Of a stretch of DNA of 64,000 nucleotides, positions 878-63,189 are shown piece by piece (position 1 is the stretch's first letter; each line of letters starts with the position of its first letter). The stretch comes from Sphyrna mokarran (taxonomy: Eukaryota): assembly GCA_024679065.1 (NCBI GenBank), contig JAGIQG010000020.1:7998001-8062000 (forward strand), given 5' to 3'. The position numbers were made by a program, and so were the translations under genes. Below the pieces are notes generated by a model. The model had not been told where the DNA came from. It searched no databases and saw nothing but the letters and a program-made list of their open reading frames with translations.

Positions 878-1200
878 GTCCGCAGAAACCATCTGTCTCT
901 CTCCTCCCGCCTTCATCGGATCAAATCACAGCGAAGAACACGGCGACCCTGGTGTGTTTGGTGAGCGGTTTTAAACCGGGAGCGGCGGAGATTGAATGGA
1001 CTGTAGATGGCAGCGTCAGAGGGAATGGGGTTGAGACCAGTCGGATCCAGCAGGACGCGGACAACACATTCAGTGTGAGCAGTTATCTGACTCTGTCAGC
1101 CTCAGAGTGGAACTCACACGAGCTTTACTCCTGTCTGGTCAAACACGAGGCTCTAGCAAACCCGCTTCAAACAACCGTCTCTAGATCCAGCTGTATGTAA
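878..1200 (+). CDS. Ig light-chain constant exon, lambda / type II (NS3-like), cluster A; its V-J lies upstream of the window
   Basis: Splice acceptor ttttaaaaccAG at 876-877, then a phase-1 open frame (G)PQKPSVSLLPPSSDQITAKNTATLVC...W...YSC...SRSSCM* with C1-set Cys/Trp/Cys and a penultimate inter-chain Cys; closely resembles shark type II (lambda) CL as I recall it. Confidence 0.95.
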
Positions 1201-7739: not shown

Positions 7740-8020
7740 AGTGGACTCAGAAGTCTCCATCTGCTCGCCCAAATGGATATAAAGAAATCCCTGAACGTAT
7801 TCGAAGAAAACAAGGGAAGTTAATCCCTATATCCTGTTCTAATATTTGGCCGTCACTGGACATGATTAGAAATAATTATTTTGTCTTGATGAAATTCCTA
7901 CTTAATAGAAGTTTGCTGCGCTCACATTTGCTCCGTGAGTGCCCTTCAAAAAGCATTTCAGTAACTGCGAAACGTTTTAGGACTATCTGGTAACCTAAAA
8001 AGCGTTATATAATTGCAATG
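7740..8020 (+). mobile_element. DeuSINE-like (SacSINE1/AmnSINE1-related) fragment
   Basis: Resembles the Deu-domain SINE consensus as recalled (tggatataaagaaatccc...ttcgaagaaaacaagggaagtt...cttcaaaaagcatttc...aaaagcgttatataattgcaa). Confidence 0.55.
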
Positions 8021-8631
8021 AGGAAAATTGGCAAGGCGATGGGAAAAGATTGTTACCTAGAACGAATAGGCCGACACTCTTGCCATATTACAACTCTTGG
8101 GTAACTTCGCACTTTGAGTGCCTTGTATGTTTTTTTCTTACCCTGGGACCAACACATTAAAGCAATTGAAACGATAAAATTATTGAGGCGATAGAGAGTT
8201 AGCATAATGATGAACGATAATGTAAGTGTGGCTGACTGGATAGGAGAAGTCCGAGAACAGATTGATTTGATTTTTTTAGCGTTCTAATGTAACTAACTAA
8301 TGGTTCGGATATTTCGGGTGCCAACGACAATGAAATAATCTTATGTTAATGTCATTACTCACAATTAAGTTCCGGAATCCCCACTTCCGGAATTGAAAGA
8401 GGCAATTTAAATATTGTTGTTACTTAATTTAGCTGACGGAGTCTGCGCTGTTGAGGTTCCCAGAGAACAATCAATTCGGAATTGTTGAACTGTCGAAGAG
8501 TTCACTGCCATTAGTTTCAGTGTAGAATCCTTGGTTTACAGATTATTGAGTCGGGTGTTCCTGGGGTTTTAACGGCAGACGAATTTATAATTGCTATCAA
8601 AAGGATTCACTGGCCTTGAAATAAAAATATA

Positions 8632-8875
8632 GACCTTTGCCAATTTTCCTCTTTGCAATTATTTTTTCGACACCAGGAAGTCCTGCAACGCTTCGCAGTT
8701 ACTGAAATGCTTTTTGAAAGGCAGTCACTGTATTAATGGAACAAACCTGAGTGCGACAAACGCAAGTAGGAATTTCATCAAAACAATACAATTATTTCTA
8801 ATCTTGTGCAGTGGGGGCAAAATATAAGTACGGGATTTGGGGGTTAACTTCCCTTGATTTCTTGAATACGTTGAG
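8632..8875 (-). repeat. Inverted copy of about 7791-8037
   Basis: Reverse complement aligns to 7791-8037 at roughly 75-80% by eye, including sequence beyond the SINE 3' end. Confidence 0.8.
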
Positions 8876-20063: not shown

Positions 20064-20155
20064 CTGATTGGCGTTAAGGTGTAGGGTGATTTGCATAAAC
20101 AAAAGTACGCGGTGACACCTCCATTGACAAGTTCATAAGCGGCCTTGGGATAAAG
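20064..20155 (+). promoter_or_regulatory. IgL V promoter of cluster B: CCAAT/Y box, octamer, conserved motif, TATA-like element
   Basis: CTGATTGG 20064-20071; ATTTGCAT 20089-20096 (decanucleotide TGATTTGCAT) about 118 nt before the ATG; GGTGACACCTCC 20111-20122; GATAAA near 20148. Confidence 0.85.
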
Positions 20156-20213
20156 TTTAGAATCAATTTCACCTGGAAATTGCCGCTGTCTCTGCTCCAT
20201 TCAATTGCTCACC

Positions 20214-20260
20214 ATGTCTTATTGGATACGTGTTGTGTGCGCTGGTGTTTTGCGTGGTTT
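20214..20260 (+). pseudogene. Leader exon of cluster B, frameshifted
   Basis: ATG in accATG context, MSYWIRVVC..., donor GTGAGT at 20261; 47 nt (phase 2) versus 49-52 nt (phase 1) in the intact leaders; restoring 2 nt (tgc gcg ctg) gives hydrophobic MSYWIRVVCALVFCVV. Confidence 0.75.
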
Positions 20261-20385
20261 GTGAGTATTATACTTTAATTCTATCATTATTAATCTCGAA
20301 GAATATTATCTGGTAATCTTTGCCCCACTTTAATTCGAAATTATAACTCTCATTGTCCTCCCACTTCTTTGTTCTTTATTTTCAG

Positions 20386-20730
20386 TTTCAAATGCGGAAG
20401 TTATAGTAAACCAGCCGCTTTCGATGTCAACTTCTCTGGGAGGAGACGTCCGAATAAGTTGTACGCTGTCCGGTGCGTCTTTGGGAAGCAGCACTGTATC
20501 TTGGTAGAAGCAGGTTCCTGGGAACACTCCCAGGCTTTTAGTCTACTATTGGTCAGGAAGCAGCATTTACAGAGGCCCGGGTATTTCAGATAGATTCTCC
20601 GGTTCCGTGTCAGGAAACACAGGAGTCTTCACAATGTCCAATGTACAATCGGAGGACGCGGCGGACTATTACTGCGCTATGTGGTAAAATGGCTTAATCT
20701 TCGGTAAAGGAACGAGGCTGACTATTGGCA
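20386..20730 (+). pseudogene. Germline-joined VJ exon of cluster B (lambda type) with two in-frame stops
   Basis: Acceptor ttttcAG 20384-20385; SNAEVIVNQPLSMSTSLGGDVRISCTLSG...VSW*KQVPG...DRFSGS...EDAADYYCAMW*NGLIFGKGTRLTIG; TAG 20505-20507, TAA 20685-20687; donor GTAAGT at 20731; no RSS between V and J. Confidence 0.92.
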
Positions 20731-23332
20731 GTAAGTAAAATCCATTCCTTGGGAAGTTCTGTAAATGATTGTTACGAGAGGAAATTTAATGATGCACGTG
20801 ACGTTTAGCTATTGAACCAAATAACTTGATTTTAAAATTGACAATTTCGGAGCTTCGGGATTTTAGCGGGCGTCACTTCATATCTCGATCGATAGTACCG
20901 ATTCAAGCAGGAAGTGAAATATCCAGTATTTGAAGACTTTTACCATACTATTGTCTTATTGGCTGCTCAAAATTGAACTGAATGGGCAACAGGAAATGAT
21001 CAATCAAGTTTCTTGTTCTTAATCTCGCCTCGGTGCTTATATCAGTGGCAGCATTTTGTGTTTCTCCGGCGATGACAGAATCGAGCAAGGATCTAATGTC
21101 TGATTGCAAACCCGACAGATAGCCATTGCCAAAGGTCGCCTAACAAATCCGACCGACGCCCGTGTAACCACAGTGCAATAAAAGCCAGCATGTAAAGGAG
21201 CAAAATGTACATTGCAAGGTGAAAGACTGGCAACCTATCACAAATTGAAGTTCCCAAGCAATATCTAATAGCCTCCCTAAATTGAATGAGCTGGAACCAA
21301 TTTCTGTAGTCTTGCATTGTTGCATTTAACAATGATATTAGTCGGATATGTCTTCTTTGACATATTTTATATTCCGAAAATAGCACTTACCCCCAGCACC
21401 CACTTATTAATGGCGAAAATGAGGAGATTTAGCTCATCTGTAAAGCATTGACTCCCAGATCTCTTAGACTTTCCCTATAATATTCTGCAAAGTTTCTCAT
21501 AGGATTTGTATTGATGACTTAGCAATAAGAATTGAACGGTTGTTAAAATATTAATGCAATTACATAAGCCGTTTTCCTACTGTGCTATGCTGAAACAAAG
21601 TAGTATGGGGTTGTCTGATTTTTCGCAACATGCGAAATGGCAAACAATTTCTCAAACAATAATATATATCACTCATAGAAGCTGTATTACAACAGGAATA
21701 AATGAATCATCGAATGATGCATGTAGATTGTAGCTGTGCCAGGACAAAACCCATCCCGCATTCATTGAGCCTATGCTGATAGGAAGTATTTGTATGTTTA
21801 TCTTCGCACGTTTAAAGTAATGGAGAGCCCTTTAAATTTGGAGCTTACATCATTGCCAAAGTAAAGAATTGCTCCCCATTCTTCCAGCGCACTCGTATGC
21901 TGATAACTGACAGTCACATTTCAGTCCAGGTGCTGCTTTGGACCGAATGTGAATAGTGAACCAGAGTTCATAGAATTCTGAATTCTATGAATTCTAGCAC
22001 AGAAAACCGTAGCAAACCGTAAAAAGCATCAATAGAATGGGACACCCGCTGATTAACGTGACGTTGGGATTTTGCGTTTTGAAATAGCCAAACTTTATGA
22101 TTCTGTATATTTTCTTTTACTGATTTATTCTTTTCACTGATATAGTTCTCCCCCAACTTCCGCAATGATCTATAGCGTAGCTGATCTCTCTTTCTGTTTC
22201 ATCTAAAGACCCTTTCCTTTCCTTTTCAGTCTCTTTGAACTTTGAAATGACTTTACATTTTGTTAATCGCGATACTAATGTGTTCTGAGGTGAGATAACA
22301 AAGCTGGTACATACTTTCAGTGTATTCAATACGCACCGCTATGTTTAGTGTGTCCATTAAATCATGAAAAATACCATGGTGCTCCCGAGAAAACCTGGAC
22401 TAGTTTCGACTTAAATCAAGAAAAAAATCTATAAAAATGCAAAATCCTGTAAAGAAGTGTAAAGTGCGTGAGTCCGTGTTGAAGCTACTTCTGATTTTTC
22501 TTGAATTATTTCAATATGACTGAACTTTCTAGTCCAAGGTAGAACATGTGTGGCGGATAGATGTTTCTTTTAAGGTGTCCTCCACATGCGCAGTGCGGAC
22601 ATCTGATGTAAACTCATAGTTGTTCCATCGTACAGAGAAAGCAGATAAAAAATTGTAATGCCATTAAAGATTTGTTACTCTGCAAGATTGGCGTTAGTGC
22701 CAAACAATTTGTGCTGGCGAGTTCCAACAGCGGCTACATTTTAAAATGGAAAAGCTATTTTACTGGTACTGCGCTGGCTCCGAGACTCTACATTAAGGAG
22801 ACATGCGTTGCCCCTATATTCATAAATACATGAACCATATGCTGGCTTCTGCTCTTGAACGCTTAACAGCTAAACAGTGTGAACCACATCACAATGAGGG
22901 TGAAGTATTAGTGGAGGTTGGTTTATATTGTGTGACAGTGTGAAACCGGCGATAGCGAAATCGGCAGCCTATGTTACACCGCTCCGGATGTTTGTTTAAG
23001 TTTCAATGGTAATAAAAATAGCTGACTCACTGTCATCCATCTTAACACTGCGCAGAAAAATCAAGATATATGCAAGTATCTTTAATGACAATTATTGATC
23101 AGAAAACCAGCATTGGTAAATGTTGAAAATGCCCACATTGTGACTGTAATATTTTGAAGCATATAGCATAAACACTAATATAATAGTATATAGATACGCA
23201 AGTATTTATATTATATATTCTATATATAATAAAGTAAACTAGCCCGATGTGTTAAGAATAAAATATTTTGAGAAAATCATATGTTTCAACCAAAGCAGTT
23301 CTCACCACTAACAAATCTATTTCTTTAATCAG

Positions 23333-23655
23333 ATCCTAAGAAACCATCTGTCTCCCTCCTCCCGCCTTCATCGGATCAAATCAAAGCGAAGAACACGGCG
23401 ACCCTGGTGTGTTTGGTGAGCGGTTTTAAACCGGGAGCTGCGGAGATTGAATGGACTGTAGATGGCAGCGTCAGAGGGAATGGGGTCGAGACCAGTTGGG
23501 TCCAGCAACAGGCGGACAACACGTTCAGTGTGAGCAGTTATCTGACTCTGTCAGCCTCAGAGTGGAACTCACACGAGCTTTACTCCTGTCTGGTCAAACA
23601 CGAGACTCTAGCAAACCCGCTTCAAACAACCGTCTCCAGATCCAACTGTATGTGA
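23333..23655 (+). CDS. Ig light-chain constant exon, lambda / type II, cluster B; exon intact but upstream VJ disabled
   Basis: Acceptor tttaatcAG 23331-23332; (N)PKKPSVSLLPPSSDQIKAKNTATLVC...SRSNCM*; 17 differences in 323 nt versus the cluster A exon. Confidence 0.9.
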
Positions 23656-31315: not shown

Positions 31316-32859
31316 AGGGAGCGTACCAGAGGACTGGAAAATGGCGAATGTAACGCTGCTGTTTAAGAAGGGAGGATGGCAGCAGACGGAAATTATAGGC
31401 TGGCTATCTTGACTTTGGTCATTGGCAAGATTTTCGAGTCCATTATTAAAGGTGAGATCGCAGGGTACTTGGAAGCGCATGAGAAAGTAGATGGGTCAAC
31501 ACGGCATTGTCAAGAGAAGGACATGTTTCATAATTCTGTTAGAGTTATTTGAGGACGTATCAAAAAAGTTAGATAAAGGAGAACCAGTGAATGTAATTTA
31601 CTTAGATTTCCAGAAGGCTTTTGACAAGGTGCCACATAGCAGCCTGTTAAATAAATTAAGTGCCCATGGCGTTAAGGGTAAGATCCTGGCAAAAATGGAG
31701 GATTGTCTGACTGGCAGAAGGCAGAGACTGAGGATAAACAGGTCGTTTTCAGAGTGGCAACCTGTGATTGGTAATGTTCCTCAGTGGTCAGTGCGAGTAC
31801 CACAACATTTTGTGATATACATTAATGATTTGGGGGAAGAAACTGAAGGCACTGTTGCTAAGTTTGCAGATAATACAAAATATGTAGAGGGACAGGTAAT
31901 ATTGAGGAAGAAGGGAGGTGGGGTGGGTGGCTCAGGATGGACTTGGACATGTTAGGAGAATGGACAAAGAATCGGTAGATGGAATACAATGTGGAAAAGT
32001 GTGAAGTTATGCACTTTGGATGGAGGAATGGAGACATAGACTATTTTCTAAGTGGGAAAACGCTTAGGAAATCAGTCACACAAAGGTACTTGGGAGTCAT
32101 TGTTCAAGATTCTCTTCAAGTTAACATGCAGATTCAATCAGCAGTTAGGAAGGCAAATGCAGTGTTACATTCATGTTGTGAGGGCTAGAATGCAAGAGCA
32201 GGCATGTATTTCTGAGGCTGTATGAGATCAAGCCCCGTTTGGAGTATTGTGAGCAGTATTGGGCCCCATATCTAAGGAAGGATATGGTGCCATTGGAAAG
32301 GGTCCAGAAGAGGTTCACAAGAATGATCCTTGGGATGACGAACTTGTTATATGAGGAATGGTTGAAGACATTGGCTGGGTTGTCCTTGGAGTTTAGGAGG
32401 ATGAGGGGGGATCTTATTGAAATTCATAGGATGCTGCGAGGCTTAGATAGAGTGGACGTGAACAGGATGTTTCCACTAGTCGGAAAAACTAGAACTGGGG
32501 GCACTACCTCAGGCTAAAGGGGTGATCCTTTAAAACAGAGAGAAGGAGGAATTTCGTCAGTTATAGAGTGGTGAATCTGTGGAACGTTTTGCCGCAGAAG
32601 GCTGTGGAGGCCAGGTCGTTGAGTGTCTTTAAGACAGAGATAGAGAGGTTCTTGATTAATAAGGGGATCAGGGGTTATGAGGAAAAGGCAGGAGAATGGT
32701 GGGTGTGAAAAAAATCAGCCATGATTGAATGGTGGCAGAGCAGATTCAGTGGGTCGAGTGGCCTAATTCTAATGCTATGTCTTATGGTTTATGGCCTTAC
32801 GGTTTACAAAAGGTAATTAAAACAAAATTTTTGAAATTGATAAAAAAACGTTGCCAAAA

Positions 32860-40847: not shown

Positions 40848-40853
40848 TTTATT
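40848..40853 (-). promoter_or_regulatory. Putative polyadenylation signal of cluster C
   Basis: AATAAA on the minus strand about 160 nt after the stop. Confidence 0.6.
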
Positions 40854-41015
40854 AAACATCTTTTTCTACAAGGATAAACGTTTCTGCCATAGTGTGCATA
40901 GATTTAAATCACGAACATAGGCCAAACGTATACAAATAGAAATGCATAGTGAATAACTAAACCCGTAGAAATACTATGAATGTTAGTTTTCACCAAATGA
41001 ACGCGATTGTCTCTA

Positions 41016-41344
41016 TCACTCGCAGCCTGATCTCCTGATGCTCTGCTGAAGCTGAGACCCGAGAGACTCATGTGTAACCCCGCACGTGTACACTTCGTGT
41101 GAGTTCCACTCGGAGGCGGTCAGGGTCAGGTAACTGCTCACACTGTACGTCTGGTCCGTGTCCCGTATGGTCCGACTCGTCTGAACACCTGTGTCCATTG
41201 TCTTGCCGTCTACGCTCCAGGAAACTTGCACAACACCCGGAAAGAAATTATTCACCAAACACACCAGGGTTGCCGTCTTTGCTGCGGAGATTTGATCGGG
41301 TGCCGGCGGGAGAAGAGACACCGAAGGACGGGACGATCCTCGAA
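41016..41344 (-). CDS. Ig light-chain constant exon of cluster C (divergent lambda-like)
   Basis: Acceptor gttctcattacAG (41345-41346); (I)RGSSRPSVSLLPPAPDQISAAKTATLVC...W...YTC...IRRSGCE*; C1-set residues and penultimate Cys; phase matches the VJ donor. Confidence 0.93.
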
Positions 41345-41484
41345 CTGTAATGAGAACGGTTGTGTTTATTGAATATGATACACATTTCACAGAGGGATGA
41401 TGAAACTTCTTGCTGAGCCCGTGAGTCAATAAGTTGTGGGTTGAACTCCCAACGCAAATACCTGAGCAAAGCATATATTCTAAT

Positions 41485-41800
41485 TTTCCAGTGCTGTACA
41501 GTGGGCGAGTTACAGTTTATAGCTGAAAGGATAGCATCTTCAAGGAATCATTCAAGGTAGTTTTAAAATACCCACTGACATTATTTTGGTGGAGAATCTT
41601 AATACCAGTATTTATCTTTCAACCAATATTAGTTAAATAGATAATCAGGATATTATTGCATAATAATTTGAGGGATCATTCTATGCCAAGATTGGCCGCC
41701 AAATTTCCAAATTGCAATAATGATTTCACTTGCAAAACGTTTAATCTGCTGAGAAGCAATTCTCAGAACCGAGAAGGCGCTAAGTGTGAGTTTTCTTTCA
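41485..41800 (+). mobile_element. DeuSINE-like relic in the J-C intron of cluster C
   Basis: ccagtatttatctttcaaccaatatt...agataatcaggatattattgcat...aagattggccgccaaatttcc...gaaggcgcta resembles the Deu domain and SINE 3' end. Confidence 0.55.
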
Positions 41801-41939
41801 TTTTATTCAGCAAATTGCAGCCAGGATAAATATATCTAATCACATATGCTATGATCTAATTGAATGACGGAGCAGGCTCCAAGGGCTATATTTGGCTCCT
41901 TCTGCTTCTAATTCCTATGTTCCTATGATGAACACTTCA

Positions 41940-42590
41940 TTTTTTTATTATTTCATGGGATGTCAGCAGTTCTGAAACGCATTCGTCGCCTATCCCGAAT
42001 TGCCTTTGAGGAAGTGGTGATGAATTACCTTCCAGACCAACCGCGTCCATCTGATATAAGTACACCCACAGTGCTTACACCAAGGAAGAAACCGTACATT
42101 TTTGACGCAGTGACAATGAAGGTTCCCGGTTAGGGTAGTGTGTGGCATGGAGGGAATTTGCAAGTGGTACATTTCCCATGTGTCTGACCCCCTTTGACCT
42201 CCTAAGTGGTAGACACTGCGGGTTTGGAAAGTATTGCCAAAGGAACCTTAGCGAGCAGGTGAACTGCATCTTGTTTATAGCCTGTAGTGCTTCATCGTGG
42301 TGGAAGGTGTAAATCTTTAAGGTGACGGATCCGGTGCCCACCAAATGACCTACTTTATCGTGAATGATGTCAGGCTTCTTGTTCTATACTCAACCAAGCA
42401 AGTGTATTCAGTCACACTGCAGATTTATGCCTTGTAGATGGTGGGCAGGATGCTGAGTTAGGGGTCATAGAATGTCAAGCTTTTGGGCAATTCTTGAAGC
42501 CAGGATGTCGATATGACTGACCTGGTCAACAGTAACCCCCGCGATGTTGATTGTGGGGTATTCAGCGATGGTATAGCGTTACAGTCAATG
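41940..42590 (-). mobile_element. Non-LTR retrotransposon relic (YKAQVR-type family)
   Basis: Aligns with 58952-60038; gccttgtagatgg motif. Confidence 0.65.
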
Positions 42591-42849
42591 TTACGTATTT
42601 CTACTAATCTTTACAAAATAAATATACGATTCAATTCCATACAGTTCGGTCTCAGAGGTAATCTTTCCACAAGGGAGTAAATTAAGACTGCCATCTTATT
42701 CTGTATAATAGTTATCTTCAAATATTAAAAACATCATGTTGCAAAAGAATTCAAGGATTATGCACATTGCAGTAAGAGTTTGCTACTTTGAATAATATTA
42801 AACTAACATGATTAAAACGAGAATTGTATGTTCTACGCTGTCTCTGCAC

Positions 42850-43130
42850 ACAGCTTTGCACTGCTACCACAAGCGGCAGAGACGCGAGTTCAATTCCGGC
42901 CTTGGGTGACTATGTCGAGTTTGCACATTCTCCCCGTGTCTGCGTGGATTTCCTCCGGGTACTCCGGTTTCCTCTCACAATCTAAAGGTGTGCTGGTTAG
43001 ATGCATTGGCCGTGATCAGTACTCGGGGTTACGGGGATAGGGCGGGGAGTGGGTCTGGGTTAGATACTCTTTCAGAGGATCAGTGCAGATTCTATGGGCT
43101 GAATTCTGCACTGTACAGGTTATATGGATA
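42850..43130 (+). mobile_element. V-SINE (HE1-like)
   Basis: B box gagttcaattcc and V-domain gagtttgcacattctccccgtgtctgcgtggatttcctccgggtactccggtttcctc. Confidence 0.8.
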
Positions 43131-44019
43131 CTGCACGGATTAAATCGCCCGTTCGGCATTCATTCCGAAAGTAATACACCTAAATGATATCCTGTTCCTT
43201 TAGTTTATCGTGCTAATACTTAGATCGAGACATGAAACTTTCGCTCGAAATCAAAATCACTTTTGAGGAAAAATACGTGGAAAACAAAACACAGATATTT
43301 CATATCGTATTCTGGATTTTAGCCTTATCTCTACTATGGGCGTTAATGCAGCCTTCCCACTTTGATTACTACACGTGTATCTGTATACTTAGGACACCAG
43401 AAAAGTTATCGCACTGAAAGTGGCTATTTAACTCACACTGTCTGGGTGGTCGAGAAGGAGTTAATAAATATACAAATAAATAATAAAGATATTAAAATAA
43501 ACAATTTAAAAGAACTAAATGTCCATTCTAATCCCACCTCCCAATACCCGATCCGTAGTCTTGCAAGTTAAAGCATTTAAGCGCGCTCAAATGATATATC
43601 TTTTTTTAATCGTAATATACCAGCAAGCTGTTACACATTAAAACTTAAATAGTCATAAAGAACGGCATTTGCCGACACGAGATCAACGTGAAAAGAAGCT
43701 CTGTGTAAATAAATCGCAAAGGCTCTTACATAGAAAATGTCATTACTCGTAGCGTACAGACGAAGCTTTCTTCGAGGAGGAAACAGATCTTTTTATAGAA
43801 AGTGAGTGTTTTGCACCCAGTGCTATTTCTGGGGCATTACAGGAACTCATGGTGATTATAATATTCAACATTCGAAATTAACATCCTTCGATTTTCTCAT
43901 GGCATTAGGAATTCAAAAAGCTACCCTACCGTGTTTTTTCCACTCTATCTATTGTTCTTTCTTTCTCTTTATTTTTAACTCTCTCTCTACCTTCCCATAC
44001 AGAGGTGCAGCAGGTAAAG

Positions 44020-44800
44020 AAGGCGAATGATACATTGTCCTTCACAGCCAGTACAGGAGCAGGGATATCCTGCTGCAATTATACAGGATCCAAGTGAGAC
44101 CACACCTGGAATATTGTGTGTAGTTTCGGTCTCCTTGTCTTGCTATAATAGGAGGGAGCGAAGGTTTACCAGATTGACTCTTGCAATGGCGGGACTGGCA
44201 TATATATGGAGAGATTGAGTCGAGTAGGTTTATATTCGCTGGAGTTTAGAAGAAAGAAGGGGTGGGGTGTCATAGAAACTTATAAAAGTCTAACAGGACT
44301 AGACAGATACATGCAGGAAGGATGTTCCTGATGGTTGGAGTGTTCAGAACCATGGGTCATAATCTAAGAGGGTAGACCGTTTAGGACAGAGATGAGGAGA
44401 AACTTGTTCACCCAGAGAGTGGTCAGCCTGTGGAAATCGCTACCATAGAAATCAATTGAGATGAAAGCATTGTGTGCTGTCAAGGAGTTAGATGTCTTGG
44501 TGTGAATGGGGATCAATATATATGGGGGAGGGGGGCGGTGGTAGGATCAGGCTATTGAGTTGGATGATCAGTCATCATTCCTGCCCAGTGAAGCAGTTGA
44601 GGCTACCTCTTTGAAGGTTTTTAAGGCAAGGATAGATAATATTTTGAACAGTAGAGCAATTAAGGGTTTTAGTGAGCGGGTGGATAAGTGGAGTCGAGTC
44701 CAAGAAAAGATCAGCATGATTTTATTGAATGGCGGGGCAGGGTAGAAGAGCCAGATGGCCTACTCCTGCTCCTATTTTCAATGTTTCTACGTTTCTACAT
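44020..44800 (+). mobile_element. CR1 3' fragments (two juxtaposed tails)
   Basis: CR1 RT C-terminus and 3' UTR motifs; tail ends gtttctacgtttctac. Confidence 0.7.
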
Positions 44801-45104
44801 TTCTGACTGTGTATTTGACTATTTTGCATAGTTGGCATAAGTGGGGCACTTTCACCTTATTTTTAATAACGATAGTTAAATTCTATGATTTACGTTGTTC
44901 GATATTTAGCTCGAAAATTTAAACATGGTGTTCCTTTATGATTCGAACATGTACTTGTTTCATATCCCTGGTAAGCCTTTATTTAAAGTTGATTACCATC
45001 TACAAAGCTAAATCTGCCTCATTAATGATCCAAATGAGACTGTATTTGATTAAAAGGAAAAACAATATCCAGTGTTCAGAGCGAATTCAGTAAAAGTTAC
45101 TTAC

Positions 45105-45455
45105 TCAGAACAGTCAATGTGGTGCCTCCGCCGAAGTAAAGCATGCTGTTCTTCCACCAACCACAATAATACACGGCGTCATCCTCTGATTGAACATTGG
45201 TGATGGTTAATTGAGCGGTGTTAGTGGACGATTGGGTCCTCCCAGAGAATCGATCAGGGACTCCGGTACCTTTGACATCACGGTTAAGATCATGATAGAG
45301 CAGGAATCGAGGACCGCTCCCGGGTTTCTGCTGATACCAGCCTATATCATTATTTCCCAAGTTTCCGCCAGACGCTGCGCAATTTAACTTAACCGTTCCT
45401 TGCGGCGCGATGGACATCGATTGCTGCTGAGTTAATGTAATCTGCGCGTCTGAAC
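45105..45455 (-). CDS. Germline-joined VJ exon of cluster C, intact
   Basis: Acceptor ctgtcctAG (45456-45457); (C)SDAQITLTQQQSMSIAPQGTVKLNC...WYQQKPG...VPDRFSG...EDDAVYYCGWWKNSMLYFGGGTTLTVL; donor GTAAGT after 45105; open frame; no RSS. Confidence 0.95.
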
Positions 45456-45567
45456 CTAGGACAGATGAAAGAATATTAGAACATGGACTTCATGTGACCA
45501 AGATCTTTATTATACTTTTCTGTACAACGAAACATTACTCCGAATAGAATATGCGTTGAATACTTAC

Positions 45568-45619
45568 AGACTGCGCAGATTATCAAAGTCGTAACGACAC
45601 ACACCCACCCGGACATCAT
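45568..45619 (-). CDS. Leader (signal peptide) exon of cluster C
   Basis: MMSGWVCVVTTLIICAV plus 1 nt (phase 1), donor GTAAGT, 112-nt intron. Confidence 0.9.
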
Positions 45620-45689
45620 GAATTCAGTGAAGCTCAGAAACCTCGGCAGGTCGCAGGCAGAAAGTATTAATGTTTACCAAACTCACCTT

Positions 45690-45773
45690 GCCTTATCAAT
45701 GTTAAGGGTGAGGGCGTGTTACCACGTGGTCTTTGACTATGCAAATACAGCTTGAAGTTACAAGCCCCCAATC
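45690..45773 (-). promoter_or_regulatory. IgL V promoter of cluster C
   Basis: Minus strand GATTGG (45768-45773), ATTTGCAT (45739-45746) about 120 nt before the ATG, E-box CACGTG, GGTAACACGCCC (45712-45723), GATAAG. Confidence 0.85.
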
Positions 45774-53269: not shown

Positions 53270-54140
53270 GTAACATCAACAGAGCATTTGACCGAGTAGG
53301 AGTCGGGGAAAATACTCGATTGGTTTGAAATCGGCTATTATGTTAGACATCAATCTCCTCGGCTTCACCATATTGCTACAGGTGTTCCTCTGTGCAGAGT
53401 CCTAAGTCTACAACTCCTTCATCAGATTGGATGTGTAGATGTTCGCTGATGATTGCACAATACTCACCGCCATTAGTAACTCTTCAGCTACGAACCCAAC
53501 CTGTGTCCACACATAACAAGATCGGGATAACATTTAGATTTCGGAAACTTGCAAGTACCAGCCAATCATCGTCACCAAAATGAGAGAATCTAAGCATGGC
53601 TCAATGTGAAGAGTTTTAACGTCACTGAATGCTTCGTCGTTAATAATTTAAGGAATTCCTCCATTGACCTGAAACTTAATTGGATCAACTATGCAAATTT
53701 TGCTCTATAATATTAGGTACTCGGCAATACCTAATGCTACCAGATTGGCTAAAGCGTGCTAACACTCTCCAAAGCACAAATCAGAGTGAGTGAGTGTTGA
53801 TACTTGCTTAGATGAATGCAGTTCCAGCAACACTCATGAAATTCGACATTATTCAGGCCAAAGCACTTGGCTTGGTCAGTGCCTCGTCCGTCACCATAAC
53901 CAGTAGCTCCTCCCTACTTAGACGCAAAATAGCAGCAATGTGTGCCATGAACAAGATACGTTGGAGGAACTCAACAAGACAGCACCTTCCTTACTTCTAC
54001 CATCTAGAAGAAGAAGATCAGCTGACACAAGGAAATACCACCACCGTCAATTCACACATCTAACTCACTTGGAATTGTATTAAATTTTCTTTTCTGTTCT
54101 TGCCTCAAAATCCGGAACTCGCTTTGTAGAAAAGTCGGAA
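53270..54140 (+). mobile_element. Old non-LTR retrotransposon relic (YKAQVR-type family)
   Basis: Decayed MFADDCT and KAQIR motifs; aligns with 32860-33905. Confidence 0.5.
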
Positions 54141-55034
54141 AAACGGATTTTACCTTGCCTTTACCATATTCTGGTATCATACCGTGTATATGTGAATGTT
54201 GTTTGCCGTGTTTCCTACAAATTCTGCACTGCCTTCCCTTACAACACATCCCACAATTGAAGAAGAAACTGATTCTTAACTGCTTCTCCGTATGTTGCGA
54301 AACAAAACAGTAACTGGAGTTGTATCTGTCCTGGTATATGTCTTCTTAAGTCACTGGTTCAGGGCATCATAACCAAGGCTGTATTTATTGCCTTTCCCCA
54401 GTTTCACTTGAGAGAGTAGGAGTGCATCATCTATTTAATCCAATATCCCTGTATAATGAAGATGCTCCGAAGGTGCTCTGGCGGGGGAAGTTCCGAAAGA
54501 TTTATGCCTCAATGATGAAGGAGCAGTGCGCCATTGCACAGGAACCCCAGAGGGAATGGTTGCCCCGTGTTTTTGCTTCCATTGTCCCTCTAGACGCTGA
54601 AACTCCCAGGTTTAGTAAATGTGTCAAAGAGGCCTTGGTGACGTGTGCTGAATAGCATCCTGCTGATAACATATTTCGTTCACAATGCATCCGTGGGAGA
54701 AGGAGTGGATGGGAATGATGATGGGTCAAGGACTGAACGAATGGATTACTTTAACCTGGAAGATGCCAAACCTCTTGGTTATTGTTCCAGCTGCACCAAA
54801 TCAATCGCTCAGTCTTTCATAACGCTCATGACTTGTACAATATCACCGCCAGCACAGTAGCAGCGGCAGCACGTTGGCACAGTACAGATGGCCTCTTTCT
54901 GCACTGTAGGTTTCTGTGATATCCAGGTATTGGGAGAGAGTCCAAAACTGAGCGATTTGCTACAGTAAAACCTTATCTCTCAGCTAGACTTCGCCACAAA
55001 TCGAGTTCTTTGATCTTGAAGAACAGTAAAGGAA

Positions 55035-55378
55035 TCTTAGGAACCTTACAGTGCAGAAATAGGCCAATCGGCCCATCGATTCTGCACCGACACAATCCCA
55101 CCCAGGCCTTACTTCCATGTCCCTATATATTTTACCCGCTAATCCCTCTAATTTACGCATTTCAGGACTCTAATTTATCACGGCAATTTATCGTGTCCAA
55201 TCAACCTAACTCACACATTTTTGGGCTGTGGGAGGAAACTGGAGCATCCAGAGGAAACCCATGCCGATACGAGGAGAATGTGCAAACTCCAGACGGATGG
55301 TGACCCAAGATGGGAATCGAAAGCAGGTCCCTGAAGCTGTGAAGCTGCAGTGCTAACACTATGCCATCATGCCGCCCA
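55035..55378 (-). mobile_element. V-SINE (HE1-like)
   Basis: Head gggcggcatgatggcatagtgttagcactg...ttcgattccc, V-domain and CR1-type tail; similar to 10792-11116. Confidence 0.8.
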
Positions 55379-55709
55379 ACAGTAAAGGAACGTTAATCAA
55401 TTCCAAGTCAGGTAGATGTGTGAATTGAAATTAGTGGTGTTTCCATGTGTCAGCTAGTCTTCTTCTAAATGGTAGACATAAGGAAATTGCTGTCGGAGGA
55501 ACTTTGTTGAGTTTCTCCAGTGTATCTTGTTCATGGTACACATTGCTGTCACTCAATGGCACCATTTGGTTGAGTTTCTGATCAGTGATGTTCTCATGAT
55601 GGTATCATCTGAGTTTGTTTAAGAAAATACAATTGAATTCAAGGAAAGGCTGGATCATTACTTGTTTTGGACAAGTATAATATCTTGATTATCTGAAGAG
55701 ATTGAGAAT

Positions 55710-55995: not shown

Positions 55996-56726
55996 ACAGA
56001 TGATCAACCTGAATCAGAAACTCACTAGAAAGCCGGGGGGAAACAGATGCAGGAGTTCAAATTGACAGCACTAGCCCTGATGTGCTGTACAGCAAAATTC
56101 AATTCCCTGACATGTTTCAAAAGTCCACATGATAAATCCGTTAATGCCAGATGAACTCTGCTATGAGGACTATCACTTTTATATCTTCGTCAACACTAGC
56201 GCCTTGGCTTCCTGTGGTCATGAACACTGCACCAGTTTAATGGCATACCCCCAAATATGCAGTCTCAAAAGAATACAACTGTTCCATCAACAAAGACAAC
56301 TTCTATGTTCTTATAGGCTGACTTGACCAACATTTCACCCGTTCGAAAGTTAGAAGGCCACTTGGAGTGTCGCTAAAGTATTCAGCAATGACTCCTCGGT
56401 CTTGACAACCGATTGCAAACTACTTGGAAGAATTGCAACAGAGCAAATTCATCCCAATAGCACAACGCGATAGTTCGACTCTTCCCTTTCAAACTGCCAG
56501 CCAAGGTACTTTTTAGGATCGGCCATTGTAGAAGTTGCCAACGTCACTACATGGAAGATTAGAGCAACCCCACTCTCTGTGTGCAGAGCTATTAGTCAGA
56601 TCCTGGAGTGCATCATTGAATATCGCTCTCAGAGCATACTCACAGGCAGCCTACAAGGAAGATATGGCCTGGATTTCTGATTTAATTGATATCTGATGCG
56701 TTATCATGCTACTTCCATAGAAAATT

Positions 56727-57802
56727 ATATATATAAATGACTTGGAAGAGGGAGTAAGTGGAGCGATCAGCAAGTTTGCAGACGATACAAAGATGGCTGG
56801 ACTTGCGGATAGTGAGGAGCATTGTCAGGCGATGCAGCAGGACATAGATAGGCTGGTAGCTTGGGCAGACAGATGGCAGATGGAATTCAATCCTGATAAA
56901 TGTGAGGTGATGCATTTCGGGAGAAAGAATGTAGGGGGGAGGTATATGATAAAGGGTAGACCTATTAAGAGTATAGAAACGCAGAGGGACCTGGGGGTGC
57001 AGGTGAACAAGTCTCTGAAGGTGGCAGAGCAAGTGGAGAAGGTTGTGAAAAAAGCATATAGTATGCTAGCCTTTATAGGAAGGGGTATAGAGTACAAGAG
57101 CTGGCCTTTAATGTTGCAGTTGTATAAAACGTTGGTTAGACCTCATTTGGAATACTGCGTCCAGTTCTGGTCGCCTTACTACCGGAAGGACGTGGAGACT
57201 CTGGAGAGAGTGCAGAGGAGGTTTACCAGGATGCTGCCTGGTATGGAAGGTCTGAGTTACGAGGAGAGGTTAGGCAAATTGGGACTGTTTTCCTTAGAAA
57301 GACGTAGACTTAGAGGAGATCTAATAGAGGTGTACAAGATTATGAGGGGTATAGATAGAGTAAACAGGGTTAAGCTTTTTCCTAGGATGGACTCAAATAG
57401 CACGAGGGGTCACGGGCTTAGGGTGAGGGGGGTAAGGTATAATTTGGATGCTAGAGGGAGTTTTTTCACACAGAGGGTGGTGGGGGTATGGAATGCGCTG
57501 CCAAGTAAAGTGGTGGAGGCAGGTACTCTGGAGTTATTTAAGAAATACTTAGATGGGCACATGAACAGAATGGGAATGGAGGGGTATAGAAAACTGATTT
57601 AAAATAGGGATCATGAGCCTTGGGAGTCCCTGGGAAGTGTGTAAATAGATGATGATATTGATTGTCTCAAATTTGGTTTTTAATCCATAGATCTATAAAC
57701 ATAGACAGGGATCACGGGTAGAGGTAGGAACATCGGGGTGGCGGCGCGGGCTTGTTGGGCCAAAGGGCCTGTTTCCCGCGCTGTTTTGTTCTTTGTTTTT
57801 TG
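56727..57802 (+). mobile_element. Young 5'-truncated CR1 LINE with an uninterrupted ~290-codon ORF2 C-terminus and 3' UTR
   Basis: IYINDLEEGVSGAISKFADDTK...QLYKTLVRPHLEYCVQFWSP...FFTQRVVGVWNALP with no stops to 57602; tail ends gttttgttctttgtt. Confidence 0.95.
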
Positions 57803-58569
57803 TTAAAAGAAAGAAATAAAGTTATGACAGTTGGTAAGATTCCACGTGAAAATCTAGTCTGTAAACTCAAATCTGTCGGCAATCAATGTAAGTCTTGTGC
57901 ACTGTTAATAAACTGATCGTTGTTCACTGTTTGAGAGGGGAGAGTCGATCTATCGCGTTGTACTATTGGGATGAATTTGCTCTGTTGCAATTCTTCCAAG
58001 TACTTTGCCACCGATTAGCATGACTAAATACTTTTTTCATTGTTAAATACTTCAGCGATCGTCCAAATTTCGAATGGATTAACTGAGTAAACCTGGATAC
58101 GCTTTCTTCGCTGATGTAACGGTTGTGTTCTTTTGAGACTGCACACTTATGGTGTATGTCATTGTTTTGATCATAGGCAGAATAGAAAACAACGGGCACC
58201 CATCAGAGAAATTACACCAGGCTAATGGAAGTCATAAATTTTCTGTCCAAGGCATTACTCTCACAACTCTGCCTCTTTCCGGATCGTTTTGCCAAATGCG
58301 CATGCGTGCAGTGCGCCGTGGTATGAATGTTGACGTCATCAGAGCGCGCCCATATTTTGCCGAGGCTCACGCTAATTCACGCATGCGCACGTCATCCGCG
58401 CATAATATTGTCTCTTGACGTCACGTAATTGGGCGTTATAGATTAAGAAGTGTCAGTTTTGGAGGATTTAATGATAAGGGGAGAGCCGAGCAACTTCTTA
58501 GGATCTTAACCTTGAAATTAGGCACCTGACGGGTTATTTTATTACAATGTATAAGATAATGAACTCTCT

Positions 58570-61334: not shown

Positions 61335-62100
61335 TGTCATAAACATAACCCCTCATCATGACTAACCTCCTTTAGCTTATACTGTTCTTTAACTTAAGTT
61401 ATTTGTTCATGTCTTACATGCTTTAACTTTAATTTATATAAAGACAGATAGTTTAATGTGGCTGTTATTTTGTAGACTTTGTAAATCTTACCTATTTGTG
61501 TTAGTTAGATATCGTTACACAGATGGTAGTTTACGATACCGGCTTTTAAAAGCTGCTGATGGCAGATCGCGATACCGGCTTTTAACAGGAAAAGTCCTGC
61601 TCGGACAGCCGCGATCGCATAAGTAACTTCAAAGACAGGGAAGCGGTACTGTTGCAGAAAGAGCTCCTGTATCCTGACTGCAGAACTGTAATTCCTGATT
61701 AACTCTGGGGCTGCATCACGACCCAGGAAGGAAGAACTGGAGGTCTGGCAGGAATTGGAACTTTGATTCGTGATTCCTGCTGGAGCTCATCATGTACAAA
61801 TGCCTACTTGTGTTTGTGTTCTATGAGAAGTCTAGTAAGCTTTAATCGGAATGTAGCGATGCCGGCGTTGGACTGGGGTAAACTCACTAAAGTCTGGCAA
61901 CACCAATTTTGAATCCAACCGATTTATTTGATAGTAAATTTACTATCTAATGTACTATCTGATATTTACTATCAAATAAATCGGTTGGATTCAAAATTGG
62001 TGTTGCCAGACTTTACTGAGCTTTAATCGGAGCCAGTTTCTCCCCAAAGCTTTGGAATGTTCTGACTCATTGTCTCGGAGGTATAATTTTACCTACGACA
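61335..62100. mobile_element. Possible solo LTR upstream of cluster D
   Basis: TGTCAT...ACGACA termini; internal tandem duplication with 36-nt period (cgataccggcttttaa at 61534 and 61570); no TSD seen. Confidence 0.3.
61851..62020. repeat. Fold-back insertion derived from a Penelope-like element end
   Basis: Perfect 52-bp inverted arms 61888-61939 and 61964-62015; direct repeat agctttaatcgga at 61838-61850 and 62019-62031; 5' part resembles the 30984 and 52124 elements. Confidence 0.8.
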
Positions 62101-62518: not shown

Positions 62519-62600
62519 CCAATTAGATGTTGCCCTTACAGGGAGGATTTGCATACATACAGAACAGACAGGTAACGCCTCCTTCACACTGTTAATAAAA
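62519..62600 (+). promoter_or_regulatory. IgL V promoter of cluster D
   Basis: CCAAT 62519-62523; ATTTGCAT 62547-62554 about 126 nt before the ATG; GGTAACGCCTCC 62571-62582; TATA-like TAATAAAA near 62593. Confidence 0.85.
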
Positions 62601-62679
62601 AGATATCAGGAGGCAGATAATTCATTCGTTTCATCCAGATACCTGTATCGGTATTTCTGCCCTCCTTCCTGTCGTCACC

Positions 62680-62728
62680 ATGTTTGAGTGGCTCACTGTT
62701 GCCGCCGTGCTGTTATCTTTTATGTCAG
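62680..62728 (+). CDS. Leader (signal peptide) exon of cluster D
   Basis: accATG, MFEWLTVAAVLLSFMS plus 1 nt (phase 1), donor GTAAAT at 62729, 104-nt intron. Confidence 0.9.
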
Positions 62729-62832
62729 GTAAATAATTTGACGAAATTTCGTGTTTGTTCTGAATAACGTTTTATTGCCATTTTCGATAGTGACTAAAGG
62801 TGTCTGAAGCTTTCGCCTTTGTTCCCTTCTAG

Positions 62833-63189
62833 GCTCAAACGCGGAATTTACATTAAAGCAACCACTGTCTCTTTCCATTGTCCCGGGAGGAAACGTCGAG
62901 ATAAGTTGTACATTGAGCGGGGTCAGTCTGGGAAACGCAGATATAAGCTGGTACCAGCAAAAACCTACTAATGCTCCTCGTTATATGCTGCGCCATAATA
63001 CCGAAACTGTAAACAGAGGCTCCGGTACTCCAGATCGGTTCTCCGGAAGGAGTGACTCGTCCGCCAACACTAGATACTTAACCATCAGCCAGGTACAAAA
63101 GGAGGATGAGGCCGATTACTACTGCGGAGTATGGATTGGCTCTGCTGGATTGTATCTATTCGGGAGTGGAACCAGGCTTTCGGTTTTGA
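62833..63189 (+). CDS. Germline-joined VJ exon of cluster D, intact; C exon beyond the window
   Basis: Acceptor cccttctAG 62831-62832; (G)SNAEFTLKQPLSLSIVPGGNVEISC...WYQQKP...PDRFSG...EDEADYYCGVWIGSAGLYLFGSGTRLSVL; donor GTAAGT at 63190; no RSS. Confidence 0.95.

Follow-up and report, generated by a model that had tools for sequence, protein, structure and literature searches.

Comparative work on immunoglobulin light chains recognises five isotypes and reports lambda-2 as not found in cartilaginous fish; its five-isotype tree of constant (C) domains includes three chondrichthyan lambda rows only (PMC5985310). Four cartilaginous-fish isotypes were counted in 2025 (PMC12227049), and elsewhere fish light chains have been left untyped, with unrecognised subtypes suspected (PMC13320880). 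Here, we describe a light-chain gene in a 64-kb window, a stretch of 64,000 nucleotides (nt) from Sphyrna mokarran (contig JAGIQG010000020.1, positions 7,998,001 to 8,062,000 of the forward strand). The window contains four immunoglobulin light-chain clusters (A, B, C and D), interspersed with repeat fragments. The gene in question, hereafter the query, is cluster C, on the minus strand, and all positions are numbered within the window. Its variable (V) and joining (J) segments are germline-joined, its C domain is strongly divergent, and together with its relatives it would represent a conserved second lambda-type lineage that is apparently unnamed. Our overall reading, to which we assign a probability of about 0.6, is that the query is a functional, low-copy, germline-joined light chain of this old lineage, with a semi-invariant role included.

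The divergence of the C domain is visible within the window. The query C shares 62/106 amino acids (aa; 58.5%) and 213/320 nucleotides (66.6%) with cluster A, and 60/106 aa with cluster B, whereas clusters A and B are identical at 304/320 nucleotides (95.0%). A first-pass annotation of this DNA, which had proposed a separate lambda lineage, was right about the 95% and about the level of roughly 59% against cluster A, although its count of 63/107 for the latter needs correcting. A search with the C domain gave 65 relatives from 731 candidates, all chondrichthyan, which fall into two bands of identity to the query, 22 at 68–94% and 43 at 53–66%. Among named proteins, the closest to the clusters of the window come from Mustelus asterias and further carcharhiniform sharks. 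Further members and outgroups came from a profile search (best 120 of 179), a short-protein search (11 matches) and cluster look-ups for 10 proteins. The database is word-indexed and clustered at 90%, and species counts for families are lower bounds.

Two V families bear the divergent C: alpha, to which the query belongs, and beta, to which cluster D belongs. Alpha was found in at least 13 species (8 sharks and 5 rays, 1–3 copies each) and beta in at least 12 (6 sharks, 6 rays). A third V family, gamma, carries a sister C that is 61–73% identical to the query C, and it was found in at least 8 species, including the chimaera Callorhinchus milii. Gamma V domains have an acidic third complementarity-determining region (CDR3) and a CDR2 of 3 aa (rows P0017, P0018, P0023, P0024, P0066 and P0150–P0159), and the family is not represented in the window; the chimaera gamma gene has additional cysteines, one in framework region 1 (FR1) and another in C. 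Among database entries, the query's orthologues and sister genes (XP_078083761.1, XP_048467583.1, XP_043572005.1 and XP_059839177.1; for gamma, AFK11423.1 and AFM88275.1) bear automatic names, under which ordinary lambda and the divergent lineage are named alike. In both C. milii gamma records in GenBank the leader is spliced as it should be, whereas genome models mispredict it, and comparison of the two shows two substitutions and one gap; we take these records to be cDNAs, in which case support for expression would be limited to gamma. An exact look-up of the V and C domains of the window found no identical entry, and none of the 11 matches from a search limited to fragments shorter than 131 aa is alpha or beta. 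PDB searches returned generic antibody chains only, with no shark light chain among the best 60 rows of either; the two best single V domains among the PDB matches shown are lambda-like.

Phylogenetic trees, built on chosen subsets of the named matches, separate these families from ordinary lambda. The C tree without outgroups (67 rows, 41 of them ordinary) joins alpha and beta with a support of 97/98, and both with gamma at 100/100. When kappa, sigma, sigma-2 and tetrapod lambda are added (63 rows), alpha, beta and gamma form a clade (96/94) that includes the chimaera gene, and ordinary type II forms another (92/90), likewise with chimaera genes. The V tree (60 rows) recovers alpha (100/98), beta (100/99), alpha plus beta (98/94) and gamma (100/100), and the VJC tree (39 rows) recovers alpha/beta/gamma (97/95), ordinary lambda (98/95), kappa (100/96) and tetrapod lambda (100/99). 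Kappa is its own clade in both the V and VJC trees (100/96–99), and a lone catfish V (row P0145) falls with it in the V tree. Three placements are rejected by approximately unbiased (AU) tests on 44 C rows: nesting of the query C in type II of carcharhiniforms (p 1e-40), nesting of alpha/beta C in type II of elasmobranchs (p 0.008), and a separation that postdates the chimaera divergence (p 0.005). The first-pass annotation had named nesting of the C domain within ordinary type II as the outcome that would speak against it; the AU tests reject such nesting, and on C as on VJC the trees keep the lineage separate from ordinary type II, in a starred clade. Because a chimaera gene lies inside the alpha/beta/gamma clade, the split would predate the divergence of chimaeras from sharks. 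The chimaera split dates to about 420 Myr and that between sharks and rays to about 270–300 Myr. We hold with high confidence that alpha, beta and gamma represent, as far as sequence comparison can tell, a second lambda-type lineage, apart from ordinary shark lambda at near-isotype depth.

For the sister group of this lineage, tetrapod lambda, shark lambda and kappa would all be compatible with the AU tests, which on VJC (38 rows) gave p 0.53, 0.08 and 0.21, respectively; on C alone or V alone, the tests separate none of the deep placements. The V tree groups alpha/beta/gamma with all nine tetrapod V-lambda at 94/91, below starred support, and the VJC tree joins them to tetrapod lambda at 81/49 only. 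One clade of all lambda to the exclusion of kappa is absent from the best trees, with AU p-values of 0.52 (C), 0.35 (V) and 0.26 (VJC). A grouping of the lineage with sigma-2 is rejected on VJC (AU p 0.015), the p-values being 0.085 on V alone and 0.23 on C alone. The most far-reaching proposal would make the lineage a fifth isotype-level lineage within the lambda locus and the true counterpart of tetrapod lambda, in place of type II/NS3, with alpha semi-invariant since the shark–ray split under one ligand or heavy-chain partner; we consider this improbable.

The J segment and the J-to-C junction bear on the same question. The junction is 17 aa long in all 37 alpha/beta/gamma rows, in 7/8 tetrapod lambda rows and in sigma, and by eye also in sigma-2, and 15 aa long in all 39 ordinary rows parsed (of 47), a marker observed here and unpublished. 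Our CDR parser gave no parse for 4 sigma-2 and 6 ordinary rows and left the junction blank in a further 2 ordinary rows and in 2 kappa rows; CDR2 was misread in 2 kappa rows and 1 sigma row. The likeness of the query J to tetrapod J, which the first-pass annotation had pointed out, stands, but it is no evidence of special kinship, because this junction and J are common to sigma and sigma-2. From this distribution, the 15-aa junction of ordinary type II looks derived, and the 17-aa junction with its tetrapod-like J ancestral. The query also has a second in-frame acceptor 6 nt inside the C exon (both sites at 41345–41338, minus strand; exon start 41338, giving 241 aa), and this downstream acceptor would yield a 15-aa junction as in ordinary type II; the longer junction is present in all 17 alpha rows measured.

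Next, we compared alpha with beta within species. In 8 species, the V domains of the two families are 41–55% identical and their C domains 68–98% (Narcine 98, Pristiophorus 93, Heterodontus 91, Mustelus 82), and alpha C domains have a mean identity of 76% between species. A single clade of the C domains of alpha genes is rejected (AU p 2e-49). The likeness of alpha and beta C within species, despite the divergence of their V, points to concerted evolution of C in the lineage, which by this pattern of identities is a small array whose C exons evolve together and apart from the ordinary array. Gene conversion among adjacent genes would account for the likeness, and repeated duplication of C exons would look alike. 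The earlier proposal that the query escaped homogenisation of its C exon is thereby upheld with respect to the ordinary clusters, but not for the beta partner, with which its C evolves in concert.

The lineage and ordinary lambda models lie on sequence records of equal length in 13/13 species that list both, so that, read from record length, the divergent lineage is on the same chromosome or scaffold as ordinary lambda in each. Kappa in Cetorhinus, sigma-2 in Hemitrygon and sigma in Heterodontus are on records of other length than lambda. In Scyliorhinus torazame, the locus number of the alpha model adjoins that of a model of the cluster B family, as in the window.

The query itself is intact from promoter to poly(A) signal (all features on the minus strand). 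An octamer promoter element (45739–45746) lies 127 nt 5′ of the first ATG, a distance that is 125 nt in cluster B and 133 nt in cluster D, and a second promoter element, GGTRACRC, follows 15 nt past it (45716–45723). The leader exon (45568–45619; 52 nt, phase-1 donor) is followed by a 112-nt GT-AG intron (45456–45567) and by the VJ exon of the alpha family, joined in frame in the germline (45105–45455; 351 nt, Pfam V-set E 6e-22), which keeps both V cysteines and the conserved tryptophan and has CDR1, CDR2 and CDR3 of 8, 6 and 9 aa. The J-C intron (41345–45104; 3760 nt, GT-AG) contains repeat fragments and has no similarity to the introns of clusters A and B at E 1e-3. The C exon of the divergent type (41011–41344; Pfam C1-set E 4e-29) runs from 41344 to 41017, with a penultimate cysteine, and then into two stops, TGA and TAG; an AATAAA poly(A) signal is read from the sequence at 40848–40853. 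The spliced leader-VJ-C (L-VJ-C) frame encodes 243 aa, a full secretory light chain that retains the C as well as the V cysteines, with zero internal stops and both introns in phase 1, and 222/243 residues are identical, ungapped, to the M. asterias RefSeq model XP_078083761.1. A scan of the whole window reported no heptamer/nonamer recombination signal sequences (RSS), and at the query their absence follows from V and J being joined. The first-pass annotation had described these intact parts, the matching phase-1 junctions, the GCE C-terminus, the J sequence and the PRFLLY motif correctly, and its span of 41016–45746 takes in the elements other than the AATAAA, which lies about 160 nt outside.

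Two simple explanations can be set aside. A pseudogene is ruled out by the intact signals and the open frame, and an assembly artefact or a lone drifting copy by orthologues in 13 species. That the query is a working conventional light chain is in our judgement very probable.

The V domain is lambda-like in its proportions. Lambda FR1 is one residue shorter than that of kappa, and the distance from Gln6 to Cys23 is 16 in the query, in all alpha/beta/gamma rows, in ordinary and tetrapod lambda rows and in both sigma rows, and 17 in 6/6 kappa and 4/4 sigma-2 rows. CDR1/CDR2 lengths are 8/6 in alpha, 8/6–7 in beta and 8/3 in gamma; the CDR1 of 8 and CDR2 of 6 of the query are within the published lambda range (CDR1 3–9, CDR2 3–7; PMC5985310). 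The long CDR2 that had been singled out earlier does sit in its PRFLLY context, but 6 aa is undistinctive, the family of cluster B itself having mostly 7.

These lengths also bear on the suggestion, raised in the first-pass annotation, that the lineage is the cartilaginous-fish orthologue of the ray-finned lambda-2 isotype. Lambda-2 is low-copy, its authors expected that cartilaginous fish yet to be studied might retain it (PMC5985310), the divergent lineage branches at isotype depth, and the gamma CDR2 has 3 aa. However, published lambda-2 CDR1 and CDR2 lengths are 5–7 and 2–3 aa, against 8/6 in alpha, 8/6–7 in beta and 8/3 in gamma, and lambda-2 and lambda are on different chromosomes in gar (PMC5985310), whereas the divergent lineage shares the lambda chromosome. 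We regard identity with lambda-2 as very improbable.

A semi-invariant role is suggested by the CDRs of alpha. In a comparison of 7 sharks with 5 rays, alpha has a CDR2 identity of 0.84 and a ratio of CDR1+2 to framework identity of 1.06, compared with 0.35–0.61 and 0.77–0.84 in beta and three ordinary sets; on other rows, alpha CDR2 identity is 0.78 against 0.36 and 0.50. CDRs fall below framework at p < 0.05 in just 1/4 comparison sets. Thirteen C positions set the lineage almost invariably apart from ordinary type II; at two of these, C-exon residues 32 and 54, which we take to be heavy-chain-contact positions 138 and 160, the lineage looks closer to kappa. Conservation of CDR1 and CDR2 at the level of the framework suggests a semi-invariant binding surface, and a specialised semi-invariant role of the alpha chain is a tentative proposal, to which we would give slightly less than even odds.

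Alternatively, the lineage may be an old lambda paralogue without a special job, amounting to three extra germline V families whose C drifted after conversion with the main array ceased. Promoter layout, chromosome and hotspot density are like those of ordinary clusters, the CDRs of beta show no more conservation than those of ordinary families (ratio 0.84), and one clade uniting all shark lambda withstands the AU tests (p 0.08–0.42), all of which would fit such a paralogue. Its retention at low copy by sharks and rays, in contrast to the expansion of ordinary lambda, the alpha CDR2 identity across the shark–ray split and the 13 near-fixed C positions fit it poorly, and we consider it unlikely, if deserving of serious attention.

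Several observations count against our own reading of an old lineage of low copy with a semi-invariant alpha chain. Alpha is present at 2–3 copies in several species, hence not strictly single-copy, and no alpha or beta turned up in skate or chimaera in the 90%-clustered, word-indexed database. Every alpha or beta record retrieved is a genome-predicted model. A looser AU test, with the query C and all ordinary type II as one clade, gave p 0.09 and was not rejected, a topology that re-rooting can satisfy, and the tested groups were named after the first trees had been seen, which weakens p-values near 0.01. The CDR argument covers 14 columns with related species paired, two comparison sets having 2 rays each, and its tests are within families. 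The query CDRs contain 7 AID hotspots in 69 nt, a density like that of clusters B and D, so no avoidance of mutation is visible; AID-hotspot and serine-codon counts are alike in clusters B, C and D. Alpha CDR3 is not conserved (0.40–0.50), and it is 6 aa, not 9, in 4/17 alpha rows (P0002, P0004, P0013 and P0146; three carpet sharks and one sawshark), which suggests that short CDR3s arose by deletion or by separate germline joining events.

In the mechanism that we favour, the lineage would have resided in the cartilaginous-fish lambda locus since before the chimaera–shark split. From general immunoglobulin biology, the octamer would drive transcription in B cells without RAG rearrangement, the heavy-chain partner would be IgM or IgW, bound through the intact VL/VH and CL/CH1 faces and the penultimate cysteine, and variation would arise by somatic mutation only. 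By the trees, the C domain has remained apart from the type II pool yet similar to the C of the head-to-head beta partner, presumably through gene conversion. At what is the weakest step, selection would hold CDR1 and CDR2 near constant across sharks and rays, so that one half of the binding site, contributed by alpha, would be fixed and innate-like, serving either a conserved ligand or a favoured heavy-chain partner. Germline-joined shark chains have an advantage in early-life expression, and neonatal IgM1gj pairs preferentially with a joined sigma-2 chain (PMC4279169, PMC5192425).

A fixed chain could also serve in surrogate-like pairing, as the first-pass annotation had considered, and would then check heavy chains in B-cell precursors. 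The query needs no rearrangement, its CDR1 and CDR2 are conserved, the role is vacant in that fish are not known to have a surrogate chain (PMC5192425, PMC9614664), and in the V tree an open group, at an unsupported fork, brings alpha and beta together with tetrapod V-lambda of long CDR2. The query is nonetheless one V-J-C polypeptide in a single L-VJ-C frame, with no unique tails and no split between V and C, unlike VpreB and lambda5, so that its anatomy lends the proposal no support. True surrogate genes are found in eutherians only (PMC9614664), and germline joining, being common to every shark lambda gene, does not single out the query. A surrogate-like function therefore seems to us a highly unlikely one for the query.

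Three further clusters accompany the query in the window. Cluster A (about 878–1200, plus strand) consists of a C exon only. Cluster B (about 20089–23655, plus strand) has a joined VJ and a C exon at about 23333–23655; its promoter, leader and C exon are intact, and two in-frame stops lie in VJ, after the conserved tryptophan and in CDR3. These lesions make cluster B a pseudogene, and a young one, of the ordinary family with long CDR2. Cluster D, the beta-family gene (62547–63189, plus strand), has an octamer at 62547, a leader at 62680–62728 and an intact joined VJ at 62833–63189, its C exon, which we expect to be of the divergent type with some 80% identity to the query C, lying past the end of the window. 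It is head-to-head with the query, their octamers 16.8 kb apart, and its V is 83% identical to the Mustelus beta model (row P0010) and falls within the beta clade (100/99). No gamma gene or further immunoglobulin remnant was found by tblastn between clusters C and D.

All three V promoters of the window have an octamer followed by 14–16 nt and GGTRACRC (20089–20118 in cluster B, 45746–45716 in C and 62547–62578 in D). The motif, which was defined after inspection of these same promoters, has 5 matches in the window and is absent behind the other 3/6 octamers (3770, 52446 and 53698); it is a possible second conserved lambda promoter element. Enhancer-like blocks common to the introns or flanks of the clusters were not found, save for repeats within the surroundings of cluster C. 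The space between clusters contains reverse-transcriptase fragments (Pfam RVT_1; 31491–31955 and 56721–57602) and dispersed short repeats (families D1–D20). Inverted-repeat pairs 0.7–1.8 kb apart and one near-perfect hairpin of 60 bp also occur (7804–8863, 53933–55548, 56253–58148 and 61880–62023); the pairs are probably terminal-repeat elements or inverted copies of retroelements.

A second chondrichthyan lambda C lineage is not described in the searchable literature, beyond whose reach key subscription papers lie. Nurse-shark papers reportedly count six NS3 loci, and that one gene of the lineage is already among them strikes us as rather unlikely. At about 65% DNA identity in C, NS3 probes would probably miss the lineage, and studies of repertoire, exclusion and ontogeny may have overlooked it. 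The lineage bears on the relationships of kappa, lambda and lambda-2 and on why light-chain isotypes persist, and alpha becomes a named candidate for an innate-like light chain.

Set beside the described systems, the query most resembles ordinary type II/NS3 lambda in organisation: both are germline-joined L-VJ-C miniclusters with an octamer and the same second motif, a short FR1 and CDR lengths in the lambda range, on the same chromosome. Unlike it, the query has a 17-aa rather than a 15-aa junction, and its lineage is low-copy and sits in a separate starred clade. Its C is 48–63% identical to ordinary lambda (14 rows), compared with 52–54% for shark kappa and 49–56% for sigma-2, by which measure the lineage would be about as distinct from ordinary shark lambda as kappa is. 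Tetrapod lambda shares the short FR1, an LTVL-like J end and the 17-aa junction (7/8 rows), but its C is 42–54% identical and its genes undergo rearrangement in a translocon. Like the query lineage, ray-finned lambda-2 (PMC5985310) is a low-copy, deep-branching lambda paralogue; it differs in CDR lengths and in linkage to lambda, and these published markers set the two apart. Kappa has a CDR2 of 3 aa against 6 in the query, a longer FR1 and its own clade, and in the VpreB/lambda5 surrogate chain (PMC9614664) the V-like and JC-like parts are on separate genes with unique tails. Sigma-2 (sigma-cart/NS5) shares the germline-joined form, a CDR1 of 8 aa and the 17-aa junction, and it differs in an FR1 longer by one residue, in CDR1/CDR2 lengths of 8/7 against 8/6 and in its location on another chromosome in Hemitrygon; it offers the precedent for an early, fixed light chain.

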